From NCBI GenBank assembly GCA_036493595.1, contig DASXPN010000106.1, forward strand, positions 11,662 through 75,661: a DNA stretch of 64,000 bases, given 5' to 3'. The position numbers and the translations under genes are program-made. A model generated the notes under the pieces. The model saw nothing but the letters and a program-made list of their open reading frames with translations. It made no database searches and was not told the origin of the DNA. Positions 13,857-59,662 of this stretch are shown here, piece by piece (the first letter of the stretch is position 1; the number at the start of each line of letters is the position of its first letter). The stretch is from Acidimicrobiales bacterium. GTDB lineage: Bacteria > Actinomycetota > Acidimicrobiia > Acidimicrobiales > JACDCH01.

Positions 13857-13874
13857 CCTGACACGCGTGTCAGG
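13857..13874. promoter_or_regulatory. TGAC-N6-GTCA operator (perfect palindrome CCTGACACGCGTGTCAGG)
   Basis: Lies between the divergent SDR and amidase genes. Confidence 0.8.
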
Positions 13875-13889
13875 TTTCGTTGTGGTCAC

Positions 13890-15290
13890 ATGAAGACCAT
13901 GGACGACACGCTGGCGACACAGGATGCGACGGCGCTGGCGGGCGCGATCGCCCGTAAGGAAGTGAGCAGCCGCGAGTTGCTCGAGCTGTATCTCGATCGC
14001 ATCGACCGGCTGAACCCCGCGATCAACGCCGTTGTCACGCTCGATGCGGACCGGGCACGGGCTGCAGCCGGCGTGGCGGATGATCTGACCGCGAAAGGCC
14101 AGAGCGTCGGCCCGTTGCACGGCCTGCCCGTGACCATCAAGGACGCCATCGAAGTGGAAGGGGTGCGATCGACCGGCGGGGCCGTCGAGTTGCGCGACCA
14201 CGTGCCCACGGCCGACGCGCCCGCCGTCGCCCAGTTGAAGGCGGCAGGGGCGGTCGTGTTCGGCAAGACCAACGTGCCGAGGTGGTCCGGCGACCTCCAG
14301 ACCTACAACGAGATCTTCGGCACGACGAACAATCCGTGGGATGCCACTCGCGTGCCCGGAGGGTCGTCAGGTGGCCCCGCCGCCGCGGTCGCGTCCGGCC
14401 TCAGCAGCTTCGAGCTCGGTACGGACATCGGAGGGTCGGTGCGGATCCCGTCGCACTGTTGCGGCGTGTTCGGGCACAAGCCCAGCTTCGGTGTCGTGCC
14501 GCAGCGTGGCTACCTCGACCATGTCGGAGGCGGAACGACGGATGCGGACATCAATGTGTTCGGCCCGATCGCTCGCAGCGCGGCGGACCTCGACCTGCTC
14601 ATGTCGGTTCTCGCGTCACCCGAACCGGAACGCTCGGTCGCGTGGCGCGTCGACCTTCCCGCGCCGCGTCATCGCGACGTGGCGTCGTACCGAGTGGGCC
14701 TGTGGTTCGAGGAGCCGCCGTGCGCCATCGATCGCGACCAGCTCGCGGTGTTGCGACGCGCCGCCGACGCGCTCGCGAGCGCGGGCGCCAAGGTCGAGGA
14801 GGCCCATCCTCCCGTCGACTTCAACGAGCAACACGGTCTCTTCATCCAGATGATCACGCCCGCGATCTCGGTGAGCATGCCCGACGACGTGGGCGACGCG
14901 CTGAGCGGCTCGCACCTCCAATGGTTGCGCGCCGACGCGCACCGCGCCCAGCTGCGCGCGACGTGGGCCGAGTGGTTCGAGACCTACGACGCGCTTCTCT
15001 GCCCGGTGATGCCCGTGCCGGCGATCCCGCACCAGCAAGACGGCGACATGTTCAGCCGCACCATCGACATCAACGGCGAGACGACGTCGTACGTGAACCT
15101 CATCAGGTGGACCGGCCTCATCGGCGTGCTCGGCCTGCCGTCAGCAGTCCCACCGATCGGGCGCACGACCGCGGGACTGCCGGTCGGCGTGCAAGTCGTG
15201 ACGCCATACTTACGCGACCGCGACGCGATCGCGCTCGCCGGCCATCTCGCCGAGTTGGCCGGCGGCTACGACGTCCCGCCCGGTTTCTGA
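13890..15290 (+). CDS. Amidase signature family protein
   Basis: TIKDA, GKTNVP, GGSSGG, GTDIGGSVRIP (Ser-cisSer-Lys triad). Confidence 0.93.
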   Translation: MKTMDDTLATQDATALAGAIARKEVSSRELLELYLDRIDRLNPAINAVVTLDADRARAAAGVADDLTAKGQSVGPLHGLPVTIKDAIEVEGVRSTGGAVELRDHVPTADAPAVAQLKAAGAVVFGKTNVPRWSGDLQTYNEIFGTTNNPWDATRVPGGSSGGPAAAVASGLSSFELGTDIGGSVRIPSHCCGVFGHKPSFGVVPQRGYLDHVGGGTTDADINVFGPIARSAADLDLLMSVLASPEPERSVAWRVDLPAPRHRDVASYRVGLWFEEPPCAIDRDQLAVLRRAADALASAGAKVEEAHPPVDFNEQHGLFIQMITPAISVSMPDDVGDALSGSHLQWLRADAHRAQLRATWAEWFETYDALLCPVMPVPAIPHQQDGDMFSRTIDINGETTSYVNLIRWTGLIGVLGLPSAVPPIGRTTAGLPVGVQVVTPYLRDRDAIALAGHLAELAGGYDVPPGF

Positions 15291-15340
15291 CGTGCACGAC
15301 CACGAGCACGTGGGCCAGCACGACCAGCACGACCAGGACG

Positions 15341-15388
15341 AACTCCGGGTCCATTGTGGGGCCGGGGCCCCGCAACGGCACCAACATT
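15341..15388. repeat. 48-bp hairpin repeat, copy 2 (inverted relative to the others)
   Basis: AACTCCGGGTCCATTGTGGGGCCGGGGCCCCGCAACGGCACCAACATT. Confidence 0.9.
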
Positions 15389-15407
15389 GGAAGGGGTGGT
15401 GGGGCTG

Positions 15408-15875
15408 ATGTGGGACCACAACGAGGCGGTCATGTTGTGGCATCTCATCCTCGCCTTCCTGCTCGCGTTCGTGGTCGGGTTCGAGCGTGAGATCCGGGGC
15501 GCGCCGGCGGGTGATCGCACCTACTCGCTCGTGGGAACGGGTGCTGCCGCGATCACGGCGGTGACGATCGGGCCGGCACCGCAGGCGATCGCCGGCGTCA
15601 TCACCGGCATCGGCTTCATCGGCGCCGGCTTCGTGATCCATAGCGACATGGGCACCTTGAAGGGCATCACGTCCGCGGCGACGATCTTCGCGGTGGCTGC
15701 CATCGGCGTCGTCGCCGGTAGCGGTCACACGTGGCTGGCGGTGGCGATCACCGCGCTCGTACTCGTCGATCTCGAGTTGCGGCAGGTCCCGGGCCTGCGC
15801 CGGTTCGATGCGCGCCGCTATGTCCAACGGGTCCGCGACGATGACGCGATGCCCGGCATGGACGACGACGCCTGA
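15408..15875 (+). CDS. MgtC/SapB family membrane protein (short, N-terminal domain only)
   Basis: GFERE...AGDRTYSLV, AGVITGIGFIGAG, GITSAATI. Confidence 0.9.
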   Translation: MWDHNEAVMLWHLILAFLLAFVVGFEREIRGAPAGDRTYSLVGTGAAAITAVTIGPAPQAIAGVITGIGFIGAGFVIHSDMGTLKGITSAATIFAVAAIGVVAGSGHTWLAVAITALVLVDLELRQVPGLRRFDARRYVQRVRDDDAMPGMDDDA

Positions 15876-15906
15876 GCATCAGCGGCTGAGGGTCACCGGC
15901 TGAGCA

Positions 15907-17397: not shown

Positions 17398-17426
17398 GGC
17401 GCCTCCCTGCCCCTGTGCCCGGCGAA

Positions 17427-19139: not shown

Positions 19140-19154
19140 AGGCTCCGGACCCTA

Positions 19155-19172
19155 CCTGACACGTCCGTCAGG
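19155..19172. promoter_or_regulatory. TGAC-N6-GTCA operator CCTGACACGTCCGTCAGG
   Basis: Divergent promoter between the PaaK-like gene and the FGGY kinase; abuts -10 TAGGGT on the - strand. Confidence 0.75.
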
Positions 19173-20581
19173 TGATTCGGGAGGCGCCGGCCATCGCAAC
19201 ACAGACAACGATCGGCATCGACATCGGTACGACGTCGGTGAAGGCGGTCGCGGCGGACGGCGACGGCAACGTGGTTGCGGCGAGCCGCATCCCTCACGGC
19301 GCCAAGGTCCCCGGACCGGAAGCGCTCGAACATGACGTGGAGATGGCGTGGCGCGACGGTGTGCGACGCGCGTATGCGGACGTGAGTCGCGATGTCGACG
19401 TCGTCGCAGTGAACGTCGCGGCCATGGTCCCATCGCTCGGCGCGTTTCGCGCCGACGGCTCCGCCGCCGGGCCGGGTTTGCTGTACGGCGATCATCGCGG
19501 GCGCCGGCCCGGTAGTGCGGACGGCGGCAACCCGGCCGAGAGTGGCGAGCTGTTGGGGTTCCTCGGTTGGCTGCACGCCAACTGTCCGGACGCGGAGCGG
19601 TTCTGGCCCGCCCAAGCGGCGGCCAACTACGAGCTGTCCGGCCGGCCCGCACTCGACACCACGACCGCGTTCACCGCGTACCCGTTGTTCGACGGCGCGC
19701 AATGGGATCCGGCGCTGTCGGCCGAAGCCGGCGTCGAACCCGCGCAGTTGCCGGAGATCGTGTCGGGCGTCGACCCGGCGGGCAGAGTCGGTGGTGGCGC
19801 GGCTGGTCCCGATCACGATGGGCCGTTACTCGGGGGCGGGACGATCGACGCGATGGGCGAACAGATCGTTGCGGGTGCTGACGAGATCGGCGATGTCCTC
19901 GTCATCTGCGGCACGACGCTCATCACGTGGGCGGTGATGGGGGAGGAGTGGATCGAGAGGCCCGGGCTCTGGACCATCCCGCACACCGCGCCCGGCAAGT
20001 TGTTGATCGGCGGACCGTCGAACGCCGGCGGGTTGTTCCTCAACTGGGCCACTGCCCTGGCCGGCAAGGGTGGCGACGACGATGCGGTCGACCCGTCGGA
20101 CGTGCCCGTATGGCTGCCGTACGTGCGCGGCGAGCGCACGCCGTTGCACCGCCACGATCTGCGGGCGTCGTTGCACGGGCTGAACCTCACGCACGGCCCC
20201 GCGCACGTCCGGCGCGCCGCGTACGAGGCCGCGGGGTTCGTCGTCCGCCATCATCTCGATCTCGCGGGCGACGCGATCGCGCCGAGACGTCTCGTCGCGA
20301 CGGGCGGCGGCACTCGTGTCGAGCCGTGGCTGCAGGCGCTGGCGGACTGCACCGGTTTGCCGGTGGACGTCGTCGCGGTGCCGGAAGGGGCGGCGTTGGG
20401 GTCGGCGTTCATCGCCCGGTGCGTCGCGGGCCTGGAGTCGCAGATGAGCGACGGCAGCCGGTGGGCACGCGTTGCGCGGCGAATCGACCCCGATGACCGA
20501 TGGGTGCCGCGAGTGGCGGAGCGATACGACGACTTCCTTACGCAGACCACACGCGCGGCCACTGGCAGCGACGTAATCTGA
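19172..20581 (+). CDS. FGGY family carbohydrate kinase (xylulokinase-like)
   Basis: GIDIGTTSVKA, GGTIDA, LPYVRGERTP, ATGGG; exact start uncertain. Confidence 0.88.
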   Translation: MIREAPAIATQTTIGIDIGTTSVKAVAADGDGNVVAASRIPHGAKVPGPEALEHDVEMAWRDGVRRAYADVSRDVDVVAVNVAAMVPSLGAFRADGSAAGPGLLYGDHRGRRPGSADGGNPAESGELLGFLGWLHANCPDAERFWPAQAAANYELSGRPALDTTTAFTAYPLFDGAQWDPALSAEAGVEPAQLPEIVSGVDPAGRVGGGAAGPDHDGPLLGGGTIDAMGEQIVAGADEIGDVLVICGTTLITWAVMGEEWIERPGLWTIPHTAPGKLLIGGPSNAGGLFLNWATALAGKGGDDDAVDPSDVPVWLPYVRGERTPLHRHDLRASLHGLNLTHGPAHVRRAAYEAAGFVVRHHLDLAGDAIAPRRLVATGGGTRVEPWLQALADCTGLPVDVVAVPEGAALGSAFIARCVAGLESQMSDGSRWARVARRIDPDDRWVPRVAERYDDFLTQTTRAATGSDVI

Positions 20582-20594
20582 CGCGCATGTCAGG
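20577..20594. promoter_or_regulatory. TGAC-N6-GTCA operator TCTGACGCGCATGTCAGG
   Basis: Spans the FGGY stop and the first ATG of the P450. Confidence 0.65.
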
Positions 20595-25799: not shown

Positions 25800-25991
25800 A
25801 TGCCACTTTCGATCAACGTCGACCGCGAGAAGTGCATGGGATCCGGCAACTGCGCCTTCCACGCACCCAACACGTTCGACCTCGACGACGACATGAAGGC
25901 GTTCGTCGTCGACGCCACCGGCGATCCCGAAGACAAGATCCGCCTCGCGGTCGACGGCTGTCCCACGCTCGCCCTCTCCCTCGAGGCCTAG
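25800..25991 (+). CDS. Ferredoxin (3Fe-4S/4Fe-4S, P450-partner type)
   Basis: 63 aa; CMGSGNC...APNTF...AVDGCP; RBS GAGGGAG. Confidence 0.92.
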   Translation: MPLSINVDREKCMGSGNCAFHAPNTFDLDDDMKAFVVDATGDPEDKIRLAVDGCPTLALSLEA

Positions 25992-26008
25992 GCGACGAGC
26001 GGTACTCG

Positions 26009-32559: not shown

Positions 32560-32577
32560 GCTGACGTTCGTGTCAGG
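32560..32577. promoter_or_regulatory. TGAC-N6-GTCA operator GCTGACGTTCGTGTCAGG within a 34-bp imperfect palindrome (32552-32585)
   Basis: Flanks CGTACATA / TATGTACG are reverse complements; divergent crotonase / SDR promoter. Confidence 0.75.
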
Positions 32578-35882: not shown

Positions 35883-35900
35883 CCTGACGTCGGTGTCAGG
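35883..35900. promoter_or_regulatory. TGAC-N6-GTCA operator CCTGACGTCGGTGTCAGG
   Basis: Directly upstream of the RBS GGAGGAGG of the secreted-protein/PQQ operon. Confidence 0.75.
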
Positions 35901-35917: not shown

Positions 35918-36823
35918 GTGCAGAGGTTCCAGCGGCGGCTCGCTGTCGTCGTCTTGATCGGCGCGGTCATGGTCGCCGGGACCGGCGCCGCGGTGGCCGG
36001 TGTGAGCGGCGGCAACTACAGCCCGTCGAAGCAGCACTGCTCGGGGGGCGCCGATGACAGCAACCGTCCCCAGCACGTCGAGAAGGGCTGCCAGAGCAGC
36101 ACCGCCAACGTGAGTGACGGGTCCGGTAACGAAGCGTTCTTCGCCGGTACGCAGCAGACCGCGGACGGCGATTCCGCGCACGACCTCGTGCACGGCGGCG
36201 ATCCTGCCAGCGTCGACCCGACGTCGGGTGCGCAGGTGTACTTCGGCGCCGACGACAACCTCGACAACGGCGAGCACGACTCGTCGTCGAAGATCAAGGA
36301 CGGTCCGAGCGACGGTGGCGCAGTTGCGCTCGACGTGTCGCCCGAATCGGTGATGCCGTGGCTCGCCGCGCTCCGGTCGGGCGACATCGCGTATCTCCTC
36401 ACTCACCCCGCACCGCTGGTCGACGCGGGTGCGGGCTCGTGTGCGGACGGAACGTGCGAGTCGGTGCAGACGCAACAGCGCACCGCGTACCAAGGTGGCG
36501 GCAAGGGCCAGCGCGACGCGGCCAACTACGACGGCACGACGTGGGATCCCGACACGTGCGCGGGCCCCAGTGACACCTCGGCAGATTGCGGGCCTGGCGG
36601 CATCAAGTCGTGGTGGAACAAGGACGGCACCGTCCACACGGAGCCGGGCGCGCAGGTCTACGAGGATCCGAACCCGGAGGGCTCACCCGAGGGTCCGTAC
36701 CCGTTGCCGGCCGCGTACGCGGGCACGTGCGGCGTGATCGCCGGCGGTGGTACCGCTCCTGCGGCACCGGCTTCGCCGATCACCAACGGCGCGGGCCAAG
36801 TCGTCGTCTCGACCGGCTGCTGA
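35918..36823 (+). CDS. Secreted Gly/Asp/Ser-rich protein with 8 Cys, function unknown
   Basis: Signal peptide RRLAVVVLIGAVMVAGTGAAVA; DDNLDNGEHD acidic motif; C-terminal Cys. Confidence 0.75.
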   Translation: MQRFQRRLAVVVLIGAVMVAGTGAAVAGVSGGNYSPSKQHCSGGADDSNRPQHVEKGCQSSTANVSDGSGNEAFFAGTQQTADGDSAHDLVHGGDPASVDPTSGAQVYFGADDNLDNGEHDSSSKIKDGPSDGGAVALDVSPESVMPWLAALRSGDIAYLLTHPAPLVDAGAGSCADGTCESVQTQQRTAYQGGGKGQRDAANYDGTTWDPDTCAGPSDTSADCGPGGIKSWWNKDGTVHTEPGAQVYEDPNPEGSPEGPYPLPAAYAGTCGVIAGGGTAPAAPASPITNGAGQVVVSTGC

Positions 36824-36824
36824 C

Positions 36825-38416: not shown

Positions 38417-38434
38417 TATGACACGATCGTCAGG
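38417..38434. promoter_or_regulatory. TGAC-N6-GTCA operator TATGACACGATCGTCAGG
   Basis: Intergenic, upstream of the MaoC gene. Confidence 0.65.
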
Positions 38435-38463: not shown

Positions 38464-38892
38464 GTGGCCGAAGAGAAGCTGTTCTTCGAGGACGTGAACG
38501 AGGGGGACGAGGCGCCGGTCGTGAGCCACGAGCTCACCCGCACCGATCTCGTGATGTACGCGGGCGCGTCGGGTGACTTCAACCCCATGCATCACGACGA
38601 GGTGAAGGCGAAGGAAGCCGGCCTGCCGAGCGTCTTCGGCCACGGCATGTTCTCGATGGGTCTGCTCGGTCGCGCCGTCAACGACTGGGTCGGTGTCGGC
38701 AACCTTCGCAACTTCCGCGTGCGCTTCACGAAGCAGACGTGGCCCGGCGAGCAGCTCACATCCAAGATCGTCGTGACGGCCAAGCGCAAGGACGACGGCG
38801 ACAACCTCGTCGACCTCGACGTCTCGCTCACCAACGAGAACGGCGAGGTGAAGGTGGCCGGCTCGGCCATCGCCGCGCTGCCGTCACACTGA
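38464..38892 (+). CDS. MaoC-family (R)-specific enoyl-CoA hydratase/dehydratase
   Basis: YAGASGDFNPMHHD, FGHGM hot-dog motif. Confidence 0.92.
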   Translation: MAEEKLFFEDVNEGDEAPVVSHELTRTDLVMYAGASGDFNPMHHDEVKAKEAGLPSVFGHGMFSMGLLGRAVNDWVGVGNLRNFRVRFTKQTWPGEQLTSKIVVTAKRKDDGDNLVDLDVSLTNENGEVKVAGSAIAALPSH

Positions 38893-38914
38893 CACGCAGA
38901 CACGCGACCGACAC

Positions 38915-38932
38915 GCTGACACGCGCGTCATC
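38915..38932. promoter_or_regulatory. TGAC-N6-GTCA operator-like GCTGACACGCGCGTCATC, embedded in four GACACGC repeats (38891-38924)
   Basis: Read directly; precedes a possible small ORF. Confidence 0.5.
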
Positions 38933-40298: not shown

Positions 40299-41528
40299 TC
40301 AGCCGTCGAGGGCGACGGGCATGTACTTGATGCCGTTGATGAAGTCCGACCGCATCCGACATACCTCGCCCGCGAGCGAAGGGTTCGGGTAGCGGCGCAG
40401 CATCTCTCGCAGCATCCACTTGATCTCGAGCCTCGCCAAGTTGGCACCGAGGCAGAAGTGGACCCCGCCGCCGCCGAAGGTCACGTGATCGTTGGGCGAA
40501 CGGCGGATGTCGAAGGCCATGGAGTCGTCGAAGACGTCCTCGTCGCGATTGGCGGAGGCGTAGAACGTCACGACCTTGTCGCCCTCCTTGATCGGGACGC
40601 CACGGATCTCGGTGTCATGCGTTGTCGTACGGCGGAAGTTGTGGATCGACGCGCCCCAGCGGAGCATCTCTTCGACTGCGGTGTCCCACAGCGCGTCGTC
40701 GTCGATGTTGGCGACGAGCCCGGCGCGCGCCTGCGGGTGATCGATCAGCGCCAGCATCGCGTGCGCGATCAGGTTGCGGGTCGTCTCGTTGCCCGCCACC
40801 ACGAGCAGCACGAAGAACAGGTTGAGCTCGGTGTCGGAGAGCCGGTCACCATCGATCTCGGCATGAACGAGGAGGGACATGATGTCCTCGCACGGGTTCG
40901 CCCGCCGGTCCGCGGCGAGCTCGTCGCACAAGGCGTAGAGCTCGGCGGATGCGAGCATCCCGTCCTCTGGCGAGGACTGGAAGTCCGGGTCCTGTGAGCC
41001 GACGAGCCGGTTGGCCAGCGCGGTGGCGCGGTGGCGGTCGCCCTCGGGGATGCCGATCATCTCGCAGATGGCCTGCATCGGCAGCTCCGCCGCGATGTCC
41101 AACGTGAATTCGATCTCGTCGCGGCCCTCGATTCCTTCGACGATGCGGCGGGCCCGCGTCGCGATCGAGTCCTGGAGCATCGCGATCATGCGAGGTGTGA
41201 ATCCGGCGGACACGAGGCGGCGGTAACGATTGTGCTTCGGCGGGTCCATCTGCAAGAGCGTCATGCGATGGAACTCCATCGCCATCGGATCCTGATCGAG
41301 GATGAACGCGGAGCCGACTTCGGTCGAGAACGTGGCGACGTCCTTGCTGATCGCCTTCACGTCGTTGTGTTTGGTGATGGCCCAGAAGCCCTGCGCGTGC
41401 GGATGGTCGTGCCAGAACACGGGCGCCTCGCGACGCAGCACCGCGAACTGATCGTGGGGGACGCCGCGCGCCCATGTGTCCTCGAGCAGATCGATCTCGT
41501 CCAGCCTGACGTCGTTCCGCACCGTCAT
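40299..41528 (-). CDS. Cytochrome P450, CYP124/CYP125-like (methyl-branched lipid or sterol side-chain oxidase)
   Basis: GFWAITKH.DV, MDPPKH...R.LV..GFTP, VAGNETTR, EEMLR, FGGGGVHFCLG. Confidence 0.9.
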   Translation of the reverse strand: MTVRNDVRLDEIDLLEDTWARGVPHDQFAVLRREAPVFWHDHPHAQGFWAITKHNDVKAISKDVATFSTEVGSAFILDQDPMAMEFHRMTLLQMDPPKHNRYRRLVSAGFTPRMIAMLQDSIATRARRIVEGIEGRDEIEFTLDIAAELPMQAICEMIGIPEGDRHRATALANRLVGSQDPDFQSSPEDGMLASAELYALCDELAADRRANPCEDIMSLLVHAEIDGDRLSDTELNLFFVLLVVAGNETTRNLIAHAMLALIDHPQARAGLVANIDDDALWDTAVEEMLRWGASIHNFRRTTTHDTEIRGVPIKEGDKVVTFYASANRDEDVFDDSMAFDIRRSPNDHVTFGGGGVHFCLGANLARLEIKWMLREMLRRYPNPSLAGEVCRMRSDFINGIKYMPVALDG

Positions 41529-42130
41529 GACGCGTCTCCTTGGATGATGGCCCGCAAACCGGCGACGACGTCGTCGGTAGAGAATGCCTCTGGGTCGATG
41601 CGTTGCTGCATGGCCGCGCCCAGCAACAACGCGATGACGAGGCCGGCGGTGCGCTTCGGATGGCGCAGGCGCCCGAGGTCCTCGTCGGAGGTCCACAAGC
41701 CCAACGGCGATGCGAGGGCGCGCCGCCGGTCTTCGTACCGCTTCGCGAGGTCGTCGGTGAACTCCGCGGTACGGGCCGCGTACAGCCACAGCTCGAACTC
41801 GAGCAGCACCCATGCGTCGCTGTTCTCGGGATCAGGTGCCATCGAGTCCGACCACAGCGCCCGCAAGCGGCCGTCGAGATCGGGGGAGCCTTCGACGTCG
41901 GCCAGGATGCGGGCCGCCGATTCGTCGAGCCATTGCTCCACCAGCGCCAGCAGGAGCCCGTCCTTGCTGCCGAAGTGGTTGTACAGGGCGCCGGTCGTGC
42001 GGTCGGCGGCATCGGCGACCGCCTCGGCCGACACCGCATGGAAGCCCTTACGGGCGAAGAGATCGGCGGCGGCAGACAGCAACCGTGACCGGGTCTCGGC
42101 CTTGCGCTCTTCCTGTGTCCGGGCCGGCAT
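41525..42130 (-). CDS. TetR/AcrR family transcriptional regulator (TetR-1)
   Basis: TRSRLLSAAADLFARKGFHAVS.E.VA..A..TTGALYNHF.SK.GL; -10 TGTAAT 7 nt before ATG 42130. Confidence 0.92.
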   Translation of the reverse strand: MPARTQEERKAETRSRLLSAAADLFARKGFHAVSAEAVADAADRTTGALYNHFGSKDGLLLALVEQWLDESAARILADVEGSPDLDGRLRALWSDSMAPDPENSDAWVLLEFELWLYAARTAEFTDDLAKRYEDRRRALASPLGLWTSDEDLGRLRHPKRTAGLVIALLLGAAMQQRIDPEAFSTDDVVAGLRAIIQGDAS

Positions 42131-42142
42131 AGGGTTCATTAC

Positions 42143-42164
42143 ATATATCGAACATCCGATATAT
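42143..42164. promoter_or_regulatory. AT-rich inverted repeat ATATATCG-N6-CGATATAT, probable TetR-1 operator
   Basis: Perfect 8-bp arms just upstream of the TetR-1 -10. Confidence 0.7.
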
Positions 42165-42188: not shown

Positions 42189-42206
42189 CCTGACGCTGCT
42201 GTCATA
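42189..42206. promoter_or_regulatory. TGAC-N6-GTCA operator CCTGACGCTGCTGTCATA
   Basis: Overlaps -10-like CATACT, 8 nt before the SDR GTG. Confidence 0.65.
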
Positions 42207-46537: not shown

Positions 46538-46555
46538 CCTGACACGTGTGTCACA
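46538..46555. promoter_or_regulatory. TGAC-N6-GTCA operator CCTGACACGTGTGTCACA
   Basis: Fills most of the 35-bp gap between the divergent SDR and CruF-like genes. Confidence 0.78.
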
Positions 46556-52016: not shown

Positions 52017-52034
52017 CCTGACACGTGTGTCAGT
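52017..52034. promoter_or_regulatory. TGAC-N6-GTCA operator CCTGACACGTGTGTCAGT
   Basis: Divergent SRPBCC / acyl-CoA ligase promoter; abuts the -10. Confidence 0.8.
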
Positions 52035-52051: not shown

Positions 52052-53569
52052 ATGGCGCAGCACGCCCGGTCGACACCTGACAAGGCGGCGCTCGTCGTCG
52101 GTGAAGAGTCCCGCACCTACGGCGAGCTCGCGGCCCGCAGCGCCCGGCTGGCCGCGGCGATGCACGACCGAGGCGTCCCCCACGACGGCACGGGCGCGGT
52201 CGCGGCGATGCTGCCCAACGGGTGCGAGTTCTTCGAGACCGCCGGGGCCGCCTGCCGCGCCGAAGCCCGTTTCCTGCCGATCAACTGGCACCTCAAGACC
52301 GACGAGCTGTCGTGGATCCTCGAGGACTCCGGCGCCCAAGTGCTCGTCGCTCATCACACCCTTCGTGCGTACGTCGATGCCGCGCTCGCTCGAGCCACGA
52401 GCTGCCGAGCCCTGATCGTCGGCGAGGACTACGAAGACGCGATCGCCGGCGCCGATCCCGTCGCCGACGATGGGTTCCTGTCGCCCGCGTTCATCTTCTA
52501 CACGTCCGGTACGACCGGGCGGCCGAAGGGAGTCGTCCACGGCGGCATCACTCCTGACGCGATGGCGACGGCGCAGCGCGGTCTCGCCGCGTTGTGGGGC
52601 TATCGAGACGACGACGTCCACCTGCTCGCCGGCCCCGCGTACCACGCCGGCCCGGGGGGCTACTCGTTCACGACACTGTTCACCGGCGGGACCCTCGTGA
52701 TCATGCCGACGTGGGAAGCGCGAGATGCGCTCGCCACGATCGAGCGCCATCGCGTCACCACGACCTTCCTCACTCCCGCGCACTTCATCCGCATCCTCGA
52801 AGTGCCCGAAGCGGAGCGCGCCCGGTACGACTTGTCGAGCCTTCGCCACATCATCCACGGTGGCGCGCCGTGCCCGCCCACGGTGAAGCGGCGCATCATC
52901 GAGGCACTGCCCGACGCCGAGGTGTGGGAGCTCTATGGCGCGAGCGAAGGGGGAGCGACGCGCGTGTCGCCGACCGACTGGCTCGCGCATCCGGGCACGG
53001 TCGGCTTGCCGTGGCCCGGGGTCGAGATCCTCGTGCTCGACCCGGACGGCCGCCCCGTGCCGGCCGGCAACGACGGCGTCATCTACATCAAGCCGCCGGG
53101 CGGTGGTGCGACGTTCCATTACCACCGCGACGCGGCGAAGACCGCGTCGGCATGGCGCGACAACGCCTTCACCGTCGGTGACATCGGCCGGCTGGACGAC
53201 GGCGGCTTCCTGTACATCACCGATCGAGTGTCCGACATGGTCATCCGCGACGGCGTCAATGTGTACCCGCGCGAGATCGAGGACGTCCTCCATCTGCACC
53301 CCGCGGTCGTCGACTGCGCGGTGTTCGGTGTCACCGACGAGCGGCGGGGCGAGATCCTCGCCGCGGTCATCGAGACGAGGGCAGCGGTGTCGCAAGCCGA
53401 CCTGGCCGGCCACGTGCGCGCCAACCTCGCCGACTTCAAGTGCCCGGAGCGGTTCACCTTCGTGGACGCAGTGCCCCGCGACCCGAACGGAAAGGTCCTC
53501 AAGCGGTTGTTGCGTGAGTCCGCACGCAATGACCTGGACCCAACTCGACAACGGACGTCAGTAACCTGA
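52052..53569 (+). CDS. AMP-binding acyl-CoA synthetase
   Basis: YTSGTTGRPKG, ELYGASEG, GDIG, DRVSDM...GVNVYPREIE, PNGKVLKR. Confidence 0.93.
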   Translation: MAQHARSTPDKAALVVGEESRTYGELAARSARLAAAMHDRGVPHDGTGAVAAMLPNGCEFFETAGAACRAEARFLPINWHLKTDELSWILEDSGAQVLVAHHTLRAYVDAALARATSCRALIVGEDYEDAIAGADPVADDGFLSPAFIFYTSGTTGRPKGVVHGGITPDAMATAQRGLAALWGYRDDDVHLLAGPAYHAGPGGYSFTTLFTGGTLVIMPTWEARDALATIERHRVTTTFLTPAHFIRILEVPEAERARYDLSSLRHIIHGGAPCPPTVKRRIIEALPDAEVWELYGASEGGATRVSPTDWLAHPGTVGLPWPGVEILVLDPDGRPVPAGNDGVIYIKPPGGGATFHYHRDAAKTASAWRDNAFTVGDIGRLDDGGFLYITDRVSDMVIRDGVNVYPREIEDVLHLHPAVVDCAVFGVTDERRGEILAAVIETRAAVSQADLAGHVRANLADFKCPERFTFVDAVPRDPNGKVLKRLLRESARNDLDPTRQRTSVT

Positions 53570-53582
53570 CCGAACGGTCACG
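53565..53582. promoter_or_regulatory. TGAC-N6-GTCA operator CCTGACCGAACGGTCACG
   Basis: Overlaps the ligase stop, 16 bp upstream of the ABC binding-protein start. Confidence 0.65.
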
Positions 53583-53598
53583 GCTCCGGGGGGATGCC

Positions 53599-54882
53599 AT
53601 GAGGGGTCGGACACACGCAGCGCTGATCTTGATGACGATGGCCCTGATCGTCGCGGCCTGCGGCAATTCGAAGAGCTCGAGCGGCAGCGGCGCGGGGCAA
53701 TCGGGCCGCACCGGTGTGACCGCCACCGAGATCCGCGTGGGTGGCGTGGCGTCGGTGACCAATGGTCTCGGCGGCACCTACGGCGACAGCTTCGACGGGT
53801 TGCAGGCCTACTTCGACACGGTCAACGCGACCGGTGGCGTGTTCGGGCGCCAGCTGAAGCTCGTCTCTCAGCGCGACGACAACGGTCAGGCGTCGCGCAA
53901 CAAGGACCAAGTCCGAGCGCTCGTCGAGCAAGATCAGGTGTTCGCCGTGTTGCCGGTGTCGACGCTCACGTTCTCGGGCGCGAAGTACCTCGTCGACAAC
54001 AAGATCCCTACCTTCGGTTGGAACATCAACGCCGAGTGGAACGAGGGCCCGAACCTCTTCGGCGAGAAGGGATCGAACCTCTGCTTCGACTGCCCCAACG
54101 CGTGGCTGTCGTACCTCGCCAAGCAGACCGGCTTCTCCAACGTCGGCATCCTGACGTACACGGCCGCGCAATCACAGGATTGTGCGAAGGGTTGGAAGGC
54201 GTCGATCGACCAGATCGGCACACCGAAGGCCGGCCTCCAGTTGAAGTTCGAGGACACCAGCCTGAGCTTCGGGTTCACCCCCGGTGACATCGCCGCCGAC
54301 CTCGACCAGATCAAGAACAACAATGTGCAGTTCCTCGCAACATGCATCGACGGCGCGGGCAGCGCGAAGTTGGGCCAGTCCTTCAAGGACAACAACCTGC
54401 CGGTCGTGCAGTACCTGCCGAACGGCTACGACAACAAGCTCATCAGTGACAACGCCGCGGTCCTCGAAGGCGACTACGTCACCGTCGGGTTCTTCCCCTT
54501 CGAAGCGGACCAGAAGCCCGCGGCGCTCCAGCAGTTCCTCGACGCGATGGCGAAGCGAGGCAAGGCGCCGAACGAGAACTCGCTGTCGGGTTGGCTCAAC
54601 GGCATGCAGTTCGTGCAGGGCCTGAAGGACGCCGGCCCCGACTTCGACCGCCAGAAGCTCATCGACGCGATCAACAAGGAGACGAACTTCACCGCGGACG
54701 GCATCCGTCCGGACGGGATCGACTGGACGAGCACGGGCCATACGGGCCACTCGACGACGGATTGCGTCGCCGTCCTTCAAGTCCAGGGCGGCAAGCTCGT
54801 GCCCAAGTTCGGCCAGCCCGGTAAGCCGATGATCTGCTTCGACCTGAACAACGTCGACCTGGACAACCCCACCTTCAAGTAG
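53599..54882 (+). CDS. ABC transporter substrate-binding lipoprotein (LivK/HAAT-type)
   Basis: Lipobox IVAAC, TGVTATEIRVG, VN..GGV.GR.L. Confidence 0.9.
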   Translation: MRGRTHAALILMTMALIVAACGNSKSSSGSGAGQSGRTGVTATEIRVGGVASVTNGLGGTYGDSFDGLQAYFDTVNATGGVFGRQLKLVSQRDDNGQASRNKDQVRALVEQDQVFAVLPVSTLTFSGAKYLVDNKIPTFGWNINAEWNEGPNLFGEKGSNLCFDCPNAWLSYLAKQTGFSNVGILTYTAAQSQDCAKGWKASIDQIGTPKAGLQLKFEDTSLSFGFTPGDIAADLDQIKNNNVQFLATCIDGAGSAKLGQSFKDNNLPVVQYLPNGYDNKLISDNAAVLEGDYVTVGFFPFEADQKPAALQQFLDAMAKRGKAPNENSLSGWLNGMQFVQGLKDAGPDFDRQKLIDAINKETNFTADGIRPDGIDWTSTGHTGHSTTDCVAVLQVQGGKLVPKFGQPGKPMICFDLNNVDLDNPTFK

Positions 54883-54886
54883 TGCG

Positions 54887-56887
54887 TTGATCGACATCCT
54901 CAACCAACTCCTCGACGGCGTACCGACGGGGTGTGTGTACGGCCTCGTCGCGGTTGGCTTGGTGCTGACCTACAAGACGTCGGGCGTGTTCAACTTCGCG
55001 TTCGGCGCACAGGCGTTCACGTCGGCCGTCGTCTTCTACATCTGCGTGCGCGATCACAACTGGCCGCTCGTGCCCGCCGCGTTCTTCGCCATCGTCGTCG
55101 TGTCGCTCGCGCTCGGGTTGGTGCTCGACCAGTTCATCTTCAAGCTGCTGCGAACGTCACCGCAGCTACCGAAGCTGGTCACCACCATCGGGCTCATGGT
55201 CGGGATCCCCGAGACGGTGAAGGCGATCTTCGGAGGTAGCACTCGCAACGCGCCGCCGAGTCTCGCCGTCGGACACGGCTGGCACATCGCCAGCTTGTCG
55301 ATCAACGCCGACGGCGTGGTGACGCTCGTCGCGACCTTCTTCGTCGTGATCGCGCTGACGGTGCTCTTCCGCTGGACGCCGATCGGCCTGCGTATGCGAG
55401 CGGTGGTGGAGAGTCACCGGTTGGTCGAGCTCAACGGCATCAACGCCGAGCACGTGTCGACGTTCTCGTGGTTGCTGTCGAGCCTGCTGGCGGGCATGGC
55501 CGGCGTGCTGCTGGCGCCGTTGTTCACGGTGGTGGACTCGAACAACTTCACGTTGCTGATCGTGGCGGCGTCCGCGGCGGCGGTGTTCGCCGGACTGTCG
55601 AGCATCCCGCTCGCGCTGGTCGGCGGCATCGTGCTCGGCGCGCTGCAACAGTTGCTCGCCTATCACCTGCCGTTGAACAGCGTGCTGGCGAAGAACATCC
55701 GTCCGTCGATGCCGTTCATCCTGCTGGCGGTGTTGTTGCTCGTCCGCCCTGGCCTGCGGCGCCAGGACGTCACCGATCCGTTGTCGGGTGTCGATCCACC
55801 GCCGCCCGCGCTGGCGGTGACGTACATGGATCCGCGGCTGGCGAAGATCAACCGCCTCCTCTTCCTCGCGTTCGTGACGGCAGTCGCCATCGGGGTGTTG
55901 TTCCTGCTCCCGGGGCTGTGGGTCAGCTACCTCGCCGAAGGTTTGGCGCTGACCACGATCTTCTTGTCCATCACCGTCCTCGTCGGCATCGGCGGCCAGA
56001 TCTCGTTGTGCCAGGCGAGCTTCGCCGGCCTCGGCGCGTTCACCGCGGGACAACTGGCGACGCGATGGGACTTCCCGCTCTACGGCGGCATCATCGTCGG
56101 CGCCATCGTCGCGGCCGCGCTCGGCGTGCTCATCGCGCTGCCGTGCTTGCGACTCGGCGGCCTGTACCTCGCGCTCGGCACGCTCGCCTTCGCACTGATG
56201 CTGCAGAACACCTTGTTCGTCGAGCCGTGGTTGACAGGGTCCGAAGGGGGCGTCGATGTGCCCCGGCCGTTGATTGGCCCGATCGACTTCGCTGACGATC
56301 GAGCGTTCTTCTTCTTCGCGCTCGCCATCTTCGGCCTCTGCGGGTTCGCGGTCGTGCTGTTGCGGCGCGGCACGACTGGGCAATACCTCGCGGCCTTGCG
56401 GGGGAGCGAGGTGGCGGCGACGTCGGTCGGCATCAATCCAATTCGCGCCAAGGTGACGGTGTTCGCCGTCTCGGCCGCGATCGCGGGCGCGGGTGGCGCG
56501 CTGTACGCGTCCTACCTCGAGACGGCGCGCGTCGATGACTTCAACGCGATCCAAGGGCTGTTCTGGGTGCTGCTGGTTGTCACGCTCGGTTCGCGCACCG
56601 TCGACGGCGCGCTCAATGCCGGCATGGCCTTCGTGCTGCTGCCGCCGTTGCTCGGTGACATCCTGCACGTGCCGTCGGATCTCGTCGTACCGATCCAGTT
56701 TGCGCTGTTCGGCTTCGGCGCCGTGACCTTCGCCCGTCACCAAGAGGGCATCGTCGAGTACCAGAAGCGAGCGAGCATCGAGCGGTTCAACGCACGACTC
56801 ACGAGGTGGTTCGGGCCGGCGAAGACCCGAGGAGCCGCGCCCGCGCCGCCTGGCGCGCCTCCTGCGCCCGCGGCGGCCGGACCGTAG
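54887..56887 (+). CDS. Fused LivH+LivM-type ABC permease
   Basis: GL.A.GLVLTYKTSGVFNFAFG in the first half; GQISLCQASF.GLG and LRLGGLYLALGTLAF in the second half. Confidence 0.92.
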   Translation: MIDILNQLLDGVPTGCVYGLVAVGLVLTYKTSGVFNFAFGAQAFTSAVVFYICVRDHNWPLVPAAFFAIVVVSLALGLVLDQFIFKLLRTSPQLPKLVTTIGLMVGIPETVKAIFGGSTRNAPPSLAVGHGWHIASLSINADGVVTLVATFFVVIALTVLFRWTPIGLRMRAVVESHRLVELNGINAEHVSTFSWLLSSLLAGMAGVLLAPLFTVVDSNNFTLLIVAASAAAVFAGLSSIPLALVGGIVLGALQQLLAYHLPLNSVLAKNIRPSMPFILLAVLLLVRPGLRRQDVTDPLSGVDPPPPALAVTYMDPRLAKINRLLFLAFVTAVAIGVLFLLPGLWVSYLAEGLALTTIFLSITVLVGIGGQISLCQASFAGLGAFTAGQLATRWDFPLYGGIIVGAIVAAALGVLIALPCLRLGGLYLALGTLAFALMLQNTLFVEPWLTGSEGGVDVPRPLIGPIDFADDRAFFFFALAIFGLCGFAVVLLRRGTTGQYLAALRGSEVAATSVGINPIRAKVTVFAVSAAIAGAGGALYASYLETARVDDFNAIQGLFWVLLVVTLGSRTVDGALNAGMAFVLLPPLLGDILHVPSDLVVPIQFALFGFGAVTFARHQEGIVEYQKRASIERFNARLTRWFGPAKTRGAAPAPPGAPPAPAAAGP

Positions 56888-56900
56888 TGGTGAGCGAGCC

Positions 56901-57662
56901 ATGACCATGCTCGAGGTCCGCACCGTGGCGGTGCGCTTCGGTGGCATCAACGCGCTCAGCGACGTGTCGCTCGACGTCGCCGCCGGCGAATCCGTCGGAC
57001 TCGTCGGGCCCAATGGCGCGGGCAAGACGACGCTGTTCAACTGCTTGCTCGGATCGATCAAACCGAGCCGCGGCAAGATCACGTTCGAAGGACGCGACCT
57101 CGCGGGAGTGCCGACATTCCGGCGGGCTCGTCTCGGCCTCGGCCGCACCTTCCAACGGGTCGAGCTCTTCGCCGGCATGTCGGCGCGTGAGCACCTGCTC
57201 GTGGCGGAACGATCGCGCCGCGGCGACGGGAGCTTGTTGAAGGACATGCTCAACAGGGGCAAGCCGCGTCCGGACGAGATCGCGGTGGCCGACGAAACGC
57301 TCGCGCTGCTCGGCATCGGCGAGTACGCCGAACAACCGGTGGAGTCGTTGACCCTCGGGCAGTCTCGTCTCGTCGAGCTCGGACGGGCGCTGGTGTACAT
57401 GCCGAAGTTGTTGTTGCTCGACGAGCCCTCATCGGGGCTCGACGTCGTTGAAACGCTCGCCCTCGCGAAGGTGCTCGCCAGTGTGCGGTCCGAGCGCGGA
57501 ACGGCGATCTTGTTGGTGGAGCACGACCTGGACCTCGTACGGCGCGCGGTCGACCGGCTGCACGTGCTCGACTTCGGGCGCACCATCGCCGCGGGAACGT
57601 GTGACGCGGTGCTGCGCGAACAGGCCGTGATCACGGCGTACCTCGGGGTGGCGGCGTCGTGA
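56901..57662 (+). CDS. ABC transporter ATP-binding protein (LivG-like)
   Basis: GPNGAGKT, LGRTFQ, LLLDEPSSG, VEHD. Confidence 0.94.
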   Translation: MTMLEVRTVAVRFGGINALSDVSLDVAAGESVGLVGPNGAGKTTLFNCLLGSIKPSRGKITFEGRDLAGVPTFRRARLGLGRTFQRVELFAGMSAREHLLVAERSRRGDGSLLKDMLNRGKPRPDEIAVADETLALLGIGEYAEQPVESLTLGQSRLVELGRALVYMPKLLLLDEPSSGLDVVETLALAKVLASVRSERGTAILLVEHDLDLVRRAVDRLHVLDFGRTIAAGTCDAVLREQAVITAYLGVAAS

Positions 57663-58393
57663 GCGACGGCAGCGCGGACATCACCGCAGACATCGCGCTC
57701 GAGCTCGACGACGTGCACGCGTCCTATGGAACATTCCGCGCCCTGTTCGGTGTGTCGATCAGGGTGCCGGCTGGTGGCGTCTGCGCGTTGCTGGGTCCCA
57801 ACGGCGCGGGCAAGACGACAGTGGCGCGGGTCGCGTCCGGACTGCTGGCGCCGACGTCGGGCCGTGTGCGGATTGCTGGCGCCGACGTCACCGGTCAGCC
57901 CGCGTGGAAGCTGGCTCGCCTCGGAGTCGCGCACGCGGTCGAGGGTCGCTCGGTGTTCACGTCGCTGTCGGTCGAGGACAACCTGCGTCTCGCGTTCCGG
58001 CGTTCACTCGGCGCGGCCGGTATGGCCGCTGGTCTCGAGCGGGCGTACGCGTCGTTTCCCAAACTCGGCCAGCGGCGTCAACAGGAGGCCGGCACGCTCT
58101 CCGGCGGCGAGCAGCGCATGCTGGCGCTGGCCCGCGTCCTGGCGGACCCGCCGGCCGTCCTCATCGCCGACGAGTTGTCGCTCGGCTTGGCCCCCGTTGT
58201 CGTGGACGAGGTCTACGCGACGCTCGCGTCCATCCGCGACGCGGGTACGTCGTTGTTGATCGTCGAGCAGCAGGTCCCGCGCGCGATTGCACTGAGCGAT
58301 GTCGTCGTGGTGCTGGGAAAGGGATCCGTGCGCTACGCCGGCCCGGCGGACCAGATCGGCGACCTCGTCGAGGAACTGCTACCGACCACCTGA
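57659..58393 (+). CDS. ABC transporter ATP-binding protein (LivF-like)
   Basis: GPNGAGKT, LSGGEQRML, DELSLGLAP, VEQ. Confidence 0.94.
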   Translation: MSDGSADITADIALELDDVHASYGTFRALFGVSIRVPAGGVCALLGPNGAGKTTVARVASGLLAPTSGRVRIAGADVTGQPAWKLARLGVAHAVEGRSVFTSLSVEDNLRLAFRRSLGAAGMAAGLERAYASFPKLGQRRQQEAGTLSGGEQRMLALARVLADPPAVLIADELSLGLAPVVVDEVYATLASIRDAGTSLLIVEQQVPRAIALSDVVVVLGKGSVRYAGPADQIGDLVEELLPTT

Positions 58394-58410
58394 GGCATTC
58401 GGAGCGCGCG

Positions 58411-58914
58411 TCACTGGCAGGCGGGGTCGACCGTCGTGCTGCCGAGGGCGGCAAGGTCACAGAAGGTCGTGCCGGTGACCTTCCACTGCCCGTTGACGAG
58501 AATGGCCTTGCCCATCTGGTTCATGAGCGTCGGATTGCCGTTCAGGTTGAGCGTGTAGGTGACGTCGGCAGTGCCGTCGGAATTGATCACCACGTTGGAG
58601 ACGGTCGCCGAGGTGCTCTTCAGTTCGGGCCCGGTGGTGGGATCGGTGGCGAACTTCGTGTACACGTTCATGTACTTGGCCGGATCGTCGAGCAGTTGCA
58701 GCTTCGCGTTGAGGTCCGTGTTCGACCCGTCGAAGAAGTCGGTGAAGACCTTCGTCACCGCATCCTTGTTCTGCTGCTCGGTCAGCGTCGTCGTCGGTGC
58801 GGTCGTCGTCGTTGTCGTCGCCGCGGACTTGTTGCTCGATCCGCCGCACGCGGCAGTGACGACGAACAGCCCGCACAACCCGACGGCCAGAAGCCGCCGC
58901 CGTAGCTCGCTCAT
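58411..58914 (-). CDS. Lipoprotein, NTF2-like (possibly MTB12-like C-terminal domain)
   Basis: Lipobox TAAC, Thr-rich linker, ADVTYTL...G.AIL.NGQWKV...FC, C-terminal Cys pair. Confidence 0.7.
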   Translation of the reverse strand: MSELRRRLLAVGLCGLFVVTAACGGSSNKSAATTTTTTAPTTTLTEQQNKDAVTKVFTDFFDGSNTDLNAKLQLLDDPAKYMNVYTKFATDPTTGPELKSTSATVSNVVINSDGTADVTYTLNLNGNPTLMNQMGKAILVNGQWKVTGTTFCDLAALGSTTVDPACQ

Positions 58915-58932
58915 TGAACCCCCCTTTGGCTG

Positions 58933-59613
58933 CTAACGGCGTGCCCGGCGCGAACCTGACACGGACGTCATCTTACGACGGACGGCCGTGCCGAACAGCG
59001 AAGCGAAGGCGATCTCCGCGAGCGTGTCGGTCAGGTCGTCGCCGTGGCGCACTTGCCGCGTCATCGCGTAGTAGTTGCAGCGCTCGACCATGGCGACGAT
59101 CGCGAGTGCGGCCAGTTGCGGATCCGGGACCACGGCAGGGCTCTGCGCGATACGGAGGCCGAGCGCGGCGACGAAACCACCGAGCAGGTCCGTTCCCATG
59201 CGGCCGAACTCGCTCGTGTCGATCTCCGCTTCGGTCCACGCCTTGATGACCGGTCCGTAGCGCGCGTGCAATTGCGAGAACTGCTCGATCCAGTCGCGCA
59301 ACATGTCATAGCCGTCGGCGTCGGCGGTGAGCGCGCCGAGCGATTCGACAAGCGCCGACATCTCGTCGGCCACGTCGACCACGAGCGCGCGGAAGAGATC
59401 TTCCTTGTTGGCGAAGTACAGGTAGAAGGTGCCGTGCGACGTCTTGGCCACCTTCACGATGTCGTCGACGCGCGCCGTGTGGTAGCCGCGCGCGCCGAAC
59501 ACCTGGATGCCGGCATCGAGCAGCCTTCGGACGGTGCGCTGCCCGCGCGCTCGTAGCTCGCGTCCCTCCGCTGGACTGCCGGCGCGGCTGTTGGTGGACG
59601 CGGCCTTGGGCAT
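58933..59613 (-). CDS. TetR/AcrR family transcriptional regulator (TetR-2)
   Basis: TVRRLLDAGIQVFGARGYHTARVDDIVKVAKTSHGTFYLYFANKEDLF. Confidence 0.93.
   Translation of the reverse strand: MPKAASTNSRAGSPAEGRELRARGQRTVRRLLDAGIQVFGARGYHTARVDDIVKVAKTSHGTFYLYFANKEDLFRALVVDVADEMSALVESLGALTADADGYDMLRDWIEQFSQLHARYGPVIKAWTEAEIDTSEFGRMGTDLLGGFVAALGLRIAQSPAVVPDPQLAALAIVAMVERCNYYAMTRQVRHGDDLTDTLAEIAFASLFGTAVRRKMTSVSGSRRARR
58955..58972. promoter_or_regulatory. TGAC-N6-GTCA operator CCTGACACGGACGTCATC
   Basis: Within the 3' tail of TetR-2, 41 bp upstream of the lipoprotein start. Confidence 0.6.
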
Positions 59614-59644
59614 CGACGATCGAGGCTAGCGGTGCCGCGCGTTC

Positions 59645-59662
59645 ACTGACATGAGTGTCAGG
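59645..59662. promoter_or_regulatory. TGAC-N6-GTCA operator ACTGACATGAGTGTCAGG
   Basis: Between divergent TetR-2 and the FadD-like ligase. Confidence 0.78.

Follow-up and report, generated by a model that had tools for sequence, protein, structure and literature searches.

A conserved palindrome predicted to be the operator of a TetR-family regulator in a catabolic supercluster of a soil acidimicrobial genome

A 64-kb stretch of DNA from an Acidimicrobiia metagenome-assembled genome (MAG) from soil (contig C106, positions 11662-75661; hereinafter, the window) contains many copies of the palindrome TGAC-N6-GTCA, and Pfam and NCBIfam annotation characterizes the gene content of the window as a catabolic supercluster. 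The question raised by this locus is whether the palindromes are operators of a single regulon and, if so, which protein recognizes them. The genome consists of 3.65 Mb in 148 contigs with a GC content of 68%, C106 itself is 104 kb long, and homologs of the local TetR protein bear the names of Acidimicrobiia or Acidimicrobiaceae MAGs. The motif exceeds chance occurrence, is restricted to the cluster, lies at promoters, keeps its individual positions in relatives, and co-occurs with one TetR-family gene of the window, denoted TetR-A. The reading best compatible with these observations, to which a probability of about 75% is assigned, is that the palindrome WACCTGAC[A/G]C-NN-G[T/C]GTCAGGTW is the operator of a TetR-family repressor, most likely TetR-A. 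The identity of the binding protein, the direction in which it regulates, its ligand and the pathway substrate are inferred from the sequence data and are presented below as predictions.

Abundance, sequence and location of the palindrome

The core (TGACNNNNNNGTCA, TGAC-N6-GTCA) has 15 exact matches in the window, whereas 100 dinucleotide-preserving shuffles of the window contain on average 1.14 and at most 5, so that none reached 15. Of the 88 core matches in the whole genome, C106 has 22, a density of 13.5 per 64 kb, and the remaining 66 are spread over 3.55 Mb at 1.2 per 64 kb. The extended motif, W-A-C-C-TGAC-[A/G]-C-N-N-G-[T/C]-GTCA-G-G-T-W, spans 22 bp; the information content drops to about 0.1 bit outside positions -4 and +17, and the flanking columns have the background composition. 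A weight matrix of 26 columns built from the 22 C106 sites yields a sharply bimodal distribution of scores over the 3.65 Mb, with 24 sites above 20 bits (hereinafter, strong or class-1 sites) and the next best at 17.9. The contig C106 accounts for 21 of the 24 strong sites, and the other three (C16:1911, C4:52624 and C130:786) are all near contig ends. In the window, the only site that does not exceed 20 bits is the one at 53567 (TGACCGAACGGTCA, TGACC..GGTCA; 12.4 bits); the site at 38917, without the CC/GG flanks, has the lowest score of the strong group (20.6 bits).

The location of the sites was assessed using gene starts called for this analysis and refined by frame analysis based on the GC content of third codon positions (GC3) and by reading the flanks. 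With the refined starts, none of the 15 window sites lies more than 45 nt inside a gene; intergenic and gene-edge sequence constitutes 12.4% of the window (P about 3e-14). Nine sites are found in divergent regions (2451, 13859, 19157, 25760, 32562, 42191, 46540, 52019 and 59647), five at junctions of co-directional genes (20579, 35885, 38419, 53567 and 58957), and one between convergent gene ends (38917), that is, 14 of the 15 are at 5' ends or operon junctions. For the sites that were measured, the distance to the nearest start codon ranges from overlap to about 90 nt upstream, and is mostly no greater than about 35 nt.

A sequence-only reading of the same DNA listed 14 of the 15 sites, with coordinates that begin 2 nt before the core (e.g., 13857 for the core at 13859-13872). 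All 14 are present; the one missed, at 2451-2464 with a score of 30.6 bits, refutes the statement that there are no copies in the first 13 kb. The extended consensus given there, WACCTGACAnnnnTGTCAGGTW, stands and is refined to [A/G]C-NN-G[T/C] in the center, and the estimate of about 0.5 chance matches per 64 kb is of the right order but about two-fold too low when compared with the shuffles and the genomic background. The assignment of the sites to gaps and gene edges applies to all of them, with nine divergent regions counted rather than seven; as to their role as operators, most fit the regulon, with 38917 being doubtful and 53567 weak. That reading named an equal frequency of the motif inside coding sequences as evidence against a regulon, and the genome-wide count is different: using a crude GC3-based gene caller, 23 of the 24 strong sites are outside deep coding sequence, compared with 31% expected, and the single exception is an over-called ORF at 2451. 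The core matches that belong neither to the strong class nor to the other palindrome of this genome, CTTGACC-N4-GGTCAAG (see below), split 25 to 22 in this deep-coding location test.

Positional conservation and co-occurrence with TetR-A

The candidate for the binding protein is encoded near the end of the window:

58933..59613, minus strand: TetR-A, the proposed repressor, 226 aa (Pfam TetR_N; TetR fold; co-occurrence with the motif)

TetR-A contains the TetR_N domain (PF00440, residues 31-77, E = 5.1e-15), and its AlphaFold2 model (predicted local distance difference test score 84, predicted TM-score 0.75) has 10 helices and an all-helical TetR fold. The top Foldseek hits are all to TetR-family proteins, the nearest ones being Bacillus FadR (including the complex with stearoyl-CoA), EthR and FasR, with about 20% identity and TM-scores of 0.6-0.74. 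A comparison with NCBIfam reaches no equivalog cut-off; the best match is the Bacillus-type FadR model NF053878, with 50.2 bits against a cut-off of 200. The gene is flanked by operators, one 33 nt upstream of the start codon and another at the 3' end, in a conserved layout of the autoregulatory type.

The sites recur around relatives of this gene. In 80 loci from other Acidimicrobiia genomes (1.24 Mb in total), retrieved via alignment of TetR-A relatives, 127 sites score at least 18 bits, which amounts to 6.5 per 64 kb; in the source genome, the density outside C106 is about 0.05 per 64 kb, or roughly 100 times lower. With neighbors assigned by a blastx search against the C106 proteins, the recurrent positions precede the TetR ortholog in 37 loci, the gene for the importer binding protein in 29, the MaoC hydratase gene, which is divergent from the TetR gene in the loci concerned, in 24, and acyl-CoA ligase 3 in 23. 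The site also recurs at the pair of ligase 2 and the SRPBCC-like gene and, in locus L069, at the junction of the FGGY kinase and P450 genes. A site just 3' of the TetR gene is seen again in many loci, in several of which it is located in front of the binding-protein gene. Two of these recurrent neighbors are conserved core targets of the predicted regulon:

53599..58393, plus strand: Liv-type ABC importer consisting of a binding protein, a fused permease and two ATPases (Pfam; sites upstream of the binding-protein orthologs in 29 loci)
59651..61393, plus strand: acyl-CoA ligase 3, CasI/FadD1/FadD17-like (540 bits, under the equivalog cut-offs; divergent from TetR-A; site in 23 loci)

Two long syntenic regions, from a genome of the same genus (G004) and from one of another genus in the same family (G011, in which the gene order is rearranged and the proteins are about 70-85% identical), allow a site-by-site comparison. 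For 13 of the 15 window sites, at least one of these two genomes has a strong site at the equivalent position, with different bases in the spacer, and the C106 sites downstream of the window have counterparts in these regions as well. No counterpart of site 38917 was found in G004 or G011. The sequence of site 53567 is kept in G004, where its right half is broken, and the more distant relatives (the 29 loci mentioned above) have a strong site at this position.

The motif also follows TetR-A across genomes. Among 31 related genomes, matches to CCTGAC-N6-GTCAGG with one mismatch allowed number 17-38 in the 15 genomes with a TetR-A ortholog and 2-16 in the 11 genomes without one (Mann-Whitney p = 1.6e-5), and the reversed-pattern controls give 0-12. 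The claim of the sequence-only reading that the sites form one regulon is strongly supported by the enrichment, the confinement to the cluster, the positional orthology and the co-occurrence with TetR-A; the lack of conservation upstream of orthologs that would have spoken against it is not observed in G004 and G011 or in the 80 loci.

The window sites, given by the coordinates of the core, are as follows:

2451..2464: operator, 30.6 bits; divergent region between the LplA-like gene (minus strand, 1281 to about 2444) and a membrane protein gene (ATG at 2515); ortholog in G004 at 5842
13859..13872: operator, 29.4 bits; 53-nt divergent gap between an SDR (12931-13836, minus strand) and an amidase (13890-15290, plus strand); G004 18086
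19157..19170: operator; between a PaaK-like ligase (minus strand) and the FGGY kinase (plus strand), adjoining the FGGY GTG start at 19172; G004 22976
20579..20592: operator, 30.8 bits; FGGY-to-P450 junction; orthologs at G004 24385 and in L069
25760..25773: operator; upstream of the operon of ferredoxin, fused acyl-CoA dehydrogenase (ACAD), DUF35, CMD and thiolase-like genes, with an amidohydrolase_2 gene divergent; G004 29387, G011 110104
32562..32575: operator, 30.2 bits; between an enoyl-CoA hydratase (minus strand) and an SDR-ACAD-ACAD operon (plus strand); G004 35301, G011 103417
35885..35898: operator; 20 nt upstream of the gene pair for a secreted 301-aa protein and a pyrroloquinoline quinone (PQQ)-type propeller; G011 100298
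38419..38432: operator; 32 nt upstream of the MaoC hydratase gene; G004 38638, G011 97759
38917..38930: doubtful site; convergent gene ends, within four direct GACACGC repeats; no counterpart in G004 or G011
42191..42204: operator; between TetR-B (minus strand) and an operon of SDR, enoyl-CoA hydratase, thiolase and PNPOx genes (plus strand); G004 45929, G011 93400
46540..46553: operator; 17-nt gap between an SDR (minus strand) and a carotenoid-synthase-like membrane protein (plus strand); G004 50328, G011 88291
52019..52032: operator; between an SRPBCC-like small gene (minus strand) and acyl-CoA ligase 2 (plus strand, ATG at 52052); G004 57149, G011 72122, and loci L003, L004 and L005
53567..53580: weak variant site; 18 nt upstream of the ABC-importer binding-protein gene, with the left half intact
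58957..58970: operator, 28.2 bits; last codons of TetR-A, 43 nt upstream of a 167-aa lipoprotein-like gene (minus strand); G004 64111
59647..59660: operator; TetR-A/ligase 3 divergent region, 33 nt upstream of the TetR-A start and overlapping the ligase ATG at 59651; present in G004 and G011

Several sites are interwoven with coding signals. At 20579-20592, the first 3 nt of the core are the TGA stop codon of the FGGY gene and the called ATG of the P450 gene is within the core; at 53567-53580, the TGA that opens the core is the stop codon of ligase 2. The ATG at 59651, inside the palindrome, may be a conserved start codon; the G011 site in the TetR-A/ligase 3 region also contains an ATG, at an offset different from that of the ATG at 59651. 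A double role of the half-site CTGACA as a -35 box (TTGACA-like) of leaderless transcripts has a suitable spacing at the amidase (13859) and fails for the FGGY kinase (19157), the start of which abuts the site, and was rejected as a rule for the sites in general. Around the doubtful site, the heptamer GACACGC, which resembles the half-site, is repeated four times in direct orientation at 38890-38930 and leads into 38917; this stretch is absent from G004. The pair of the secreted 301-aa protein and the PQQ-type propeller (35918-38411) is present, together with its operator, in G011 and is absent from G004, where a single operator is located directly between ACADb and MaoC; judging from this arrangement, the difference is an indel of a whole unit under predicted operator control.

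The proposed binding protein and mode of regulation

Palindromes in such positions could also act at the RNA level, as 5'-untranslated-region or terminator structures or as processing sites. The extended palindrome could fold into a stem of 9 bp with 4 nt in the loop, stop codons coincide with two of the sites, and site 38917 lies between convergent gene ends. However, it is the sequence that is conserved, and the variable positions of the arms show no covariation: among the 127 sites of the other genomes, the pair 4/9 is complementary in 53 cases compared with 56.5 expected, and the pair 5/8 in 62 compared with 71, and the complementarity of the flank pairs likewise does not exceed that expected under independence. 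Because complementarity at the variable positions is not in excess, the half-site appears to be conserved as the sequence TGAC[A/G] and not as a pairing partner. Furthermore, any transcription through the nine sites that serve divergent genes could run either way, no T-run was seen after the sites that were read, and the sole 3'-end site, 38917, is not conserved, so that a role as RNA hairpins is extremely improbable. Short intergenic palindromes in many copies are also typical of locally spread selfish repeats that resemble repetitive extragenic palindromic (REP) sequences or miniature inverted-repeat transposable elements, but here conservation ends at about 22 bp, with background composition in the flanks, orthologous positions are kept in spite of the protein divergence and the rearranged gene order, and the copies are held by one functional cluster instead of being dispersed; there is very little to recommend this explanation. 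The lack of covariation, combined with the use of the site in both orientations at divergent promoters, therefore favors a dimeric DNA-binding protein over an RNA hairpin, a terminator or a REP element.

Under the proposed mechanism, a TetR-A dimer would contact the two TGAC[A/G] half-sites, the centers of which are 10 bp apart, and would occupy about 24 operators across the catabolic supercluster, which spans 104 kb or more; the predicted regulon extends past the window on both sides. The bound repressor would block transcription initiation of approximately 15 transcription units in the window, many of them divergent pairs. The predicted targets include SDRs, acyl-CoA dehydrogenases, hydratases, thiolase-like and DUF35 proteins, three P450s and amidohydrolases, as well as acyl-CoA ligases, the Liv-type ABC importer, the TetR-A gene itself and the second regulator TetR-B. 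The repressor would be released by a ligand from the pathway, probably an acyl-CoA that the co-regulated ligases produce. Repression by promoter occlusion is proposed for one reason, namely, that the sites are close to start codons.

Several points weigh against this assignment. The 80 loci were picked through homology to TetR-A, so that the adjacency statistic is not independent. A mild excess of the motif is seen in a few genomes without a TetR-A match (e.g., 16 against 5 in G020 and 15 against 4 in G028). No consistent -10/-35 geometry relative to the sites was found. No RNA-seq or metatranscriptome runs with the source sequence were found, the only matching runs being four of soil DNA. Some TetR-family proteins, such as FasR, are activators. 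Finally, the contig encodes a close paralog that could bind the same box:

C106:96630-97298, outside the window and 25 kb from TetR-A: TetR-C, a TetR-A paralog, 44% identical

The recognition helix of TetR-C, SHGTFYLYF, is the same as that of TetR-A (SHGTFYLYFANKEDLF), and TetR-C co-occurs with TetR-A in the relatives, where it stays 20-30 kb away from it; moreover, three genomes in which the sole match is about 41-44% identical to TetR-A, i.e., at the level of the paralog, keep a modest excess of the motif (6-13). Because the recognition helix is shared, TetR-C is a possible second binder. That the operator is real but is read by TetR-C or by both paralogs, and not by TetR-A alone, is nevertheless rather unlikely: no class-1 site comes closer than about 2 kb to the start of TetR-C in the source genome, G004 or G011, whereas TetR-A has sites on both sides, with the upstream one conserved in 37 loci, and TetR regulators usually autoregulate. 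Two additional TetR-A-like genes, with 39-42% identity over the N-terminal half, are arranged in tandem at C88:4400-5600 and adjoin sub-threshold class-1-like sites, C88:4319 (16.6 bits) and C88:2674 (11.9 bits).

The possibility that TetR-A binds these sites as an activator, in the manner of FasR, which is among its structural neighbors, or in a dual role, appears improbable. Some sites lie 30-90 nt upstream of start codons, a geometry that permits activation, but many abut or overlap starts or sit in divergent gaps of 17-53 nt (19157, 46540, 13859 and 59647), which is the usual position of repressor operators, and most catabolic TetR regulators are repressors.

The window encodes another, unrelated TetR regulator, with a palindrome of its own:

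41525..42139, minus strand: TetR-B, an unrelated second TetR gene with its own AT-rich palindrome
42143..42164, no strand assigned: second palindrome, ATATATCG-N6-CGATATAT, AT-rich, beside the TetR-B start codon

This second palindrome occurs once in the genome, is conserved in G004 and is degenerate in G011; it is probably the operator of TetR-B itself. Because TetR-B has a unique, conserved palindrome of its own, it looks like a nested local regulator, probably a sub-regulator within the larger set; the class-1 site 42191 lies in the same promoter region. A comparison of TetR-B with the KstR model NF033703 yields 32.7 bits, against a cut-off of 280.

Relationship to known regulators

KstR of Mycobacterium and Rhodococcus is a TetR repressor that recognizes the box TnnAACnnGTTnnA and controls about 70-80 genes of lipid and cholesterol catabolism. 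The system described here resembles the KstR regulon in that a TetR regulator is combined with a palindrome with a 14-bp core in many short, often divergent gaps, a large cluster of lipid-type beta-oxidation genes, and autoregulation, but the box differs, being TGAC-N6-GTCA with CC/GG flanks, and KstR is absent from the list of NCBIfam matches of TetR-A. The class-1 operators also share with those of KstR, as described for the latter in PMC3388012, a place among the non-coding sequences that are best conserved between related genera; the motif TAC-N6-GTA, reported in the same comparative study of mycobacteria, is distinct from the class-1 box. In agreement with the sequence-only reading, which had set the motif apart from the KstR and KstR2 boxes, the pattern TnnAACnnGTTnnA has no match on C106, with all 26 genome-wide matches on other contigs, and the KstR2 box AnCAAGnnCTTGnT has no match in the whole genome. 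Canonical KstR boxes (ACTAGAACGTGTTCTAGT) are located on C136 (4770, 9507, 10818 and 23219), C67 (24966, 27399 and 27461) and C111 (28825), and a gene for a KshA_C-domain (KshA-like) protein opens C136 (26-613). Thus, a true KstR-like regulon for steroids probably exists in this organism apart from the predicted TetR-A regulon; because KstR boxes are found elsewhere and none is on C106, the C106 regulon appears to be parallel to, and not identical with, the KstR regulon.

Bacillus FadR (YsiA), FasR and Thermus FadR/PfmR provide the nearest solved structures and the best NCBIfam and PDB sequence matches for TetR-A. Bacillus FadR and its kin control genes of fatty-acid degradation, from which they are released by acyl-CoA. 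Unlike this group, to which TetR-A is only about 20% identical, the putative regulon here is clustered and is much richer in P450s, SDRs and amidohydrolases, and the FadR-group operators differ in sequence from the class-1 box. The boxes of Corynebacterium McbR (TAGAC-N6-GTCTA) and Thermus SbtR (TGACCCNNKGGTCA), compared as strings only, share the 5-N-5 architecture of TetR operators, and that of SbtR also fits TGAC-N6-GTCA, but the half-site, the flanks, the protein and the biology are different.

The genome contains another distinct palindrome, CTTGACC-N4-GGTCAAG, in 17 copies, of which 16 are outside deep coding sequence. Most contigs concerned have a single copy (C1, C20, C23, C28, C33, C41, C63, C87, C91, C93, C103, C120, C133, C144 and C148; none in the window), and the copy at C33:6835 precedes a TetR gene (C33:6879-7391) by 44 nt. 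The set has the appearance of a further TetR regulon, dispersed over the genome; its palindrome, unlike the class-1 sites, resembles the Thermus SbtR box.

Literature text searches with the motif strings retrieved no bacterial regulator with this palindromic box, the only papers found being on plant WHIRLY, GraSR and CopR, and a text search for TetR regulons in Acidimicrobiia found nothing relevant. The regulon therefore appears to be undescribed, as judged from negative text searches and not from a motif-database comparison, although it is of the ordinary TetR repressor-operator kind. An exact match to the box of a characterized regulator, which the sequence-only reading had named as a contrary outcome, was not encountered either for KstR and KstR2 or in these searches, and TetR-A is below every NCBIfam equivalog cut-off.

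Gene content and the predicted pathway

The supercluster comprises the following genes:

SDRs: at least seven
acyl-CoA dehydrogenases: several, including a 777-aa fused double ACAD
DUF35/ChsH2-type OB proteins and lipid-transfer-type thiolase-like proteins
hydratases: two enoyl-CoA hydratases and one MaoC hydratase
P450s: two in the window and a third just outside
amidohydrolase_2: two; amidase: one; nitronate-monooxygenase-like enzyme: one
WS/DGAT, FGGY kinase and GMC oxidoreductase
adenylate-forming ligases: four, one of them nearest to CasI/FadD1/FadD17, under the cut-offs
Liv-type ABC importer

Some of the gene models differ from the longest open reading frames (ORFs). In the region 1281-3810, the longest-ORF list gives a 512-aa ADH and a 542-aa ORF, and GC3 frame analysis points to two other genes:

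1281-2444, minus strand: LplA-like gene (lipoate/biotin ligase-like by eye), from GC3 frame analysis
2515-3810, plus strand, ATG at 2515: membrane protein gene, from GC3 frame analysis

In the region 25801-28111, a small ferredoxin-like gene (MPLSINVDREKCMGSGNC...) begins at an ATG at about 25801, in a frame other than that of the 777-aa ORF; the ATG near 25800 was accordingly ruled out as the start of the ACAD, given that it opens the separate ferredoxin gene. The 777-aa ORF that follows is the fused double ACAD, with an IpdE2-like N-terminal half and a PimC-like C-terminal half. A look-up of DNA records finds the amidase in only one 9.6-kb Joint Genome Institute contig, with partial Pfam annotation, and no record for the ligase at 52025.

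The gene content suggests that the substrate is a branched, alicyclic or steroid-like acid that is handled as a CoA ester. A more far-reaching and quite tentative proposal, less likely to be right than wrong, is that TetR-A is the master switch of an unrecognized pathway for a complex lipid-like substrate (steroid-, terpenoid- or alicyclic-acid-like) that soil Acidimicrobiia would operate alongside the separate KstR/KshA steroid system, with a regulon of more than 60 genes and TetR-B nested within it. Under this proposal, the unusual members of the regulon may include the secreted Cys-rich protein with the PQQ-type propeller, the ferredoxin followed by the fused double ACAD, and WS/DGAT, for the synthesis of storage lipids. 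If this is true, every gene of a hitherto unknown pathway of an uncultured lineage would be marked out by the operators.

Altogether, three or more distinct regulons of the TetR type seem to be maintained in this genome, namely, the TetR-A set, the canonical KstR-type set and the dispersed CTTGACC-N4-GGTCAAG set; because three such regulons appear to be present, lipid catabolism would be partitioned among them. Soil, water and activated sludge all harbor abundant Acidimicrobiia, of which only a few have been cultured, and gene regulation in these bacteria has received little study. In this group, a high-information operator that is conserved across the family would be a means to find all the genes of one large catabolic programme in hundreds of MAGs, and TetR-A with its predicted box constitutes a defined protein-DNA pair that is testable in vitro without culturing the organism. 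The same pair would provide a handle on the inducing metabolite and hence on the substrate that these bacteria use in the environment.

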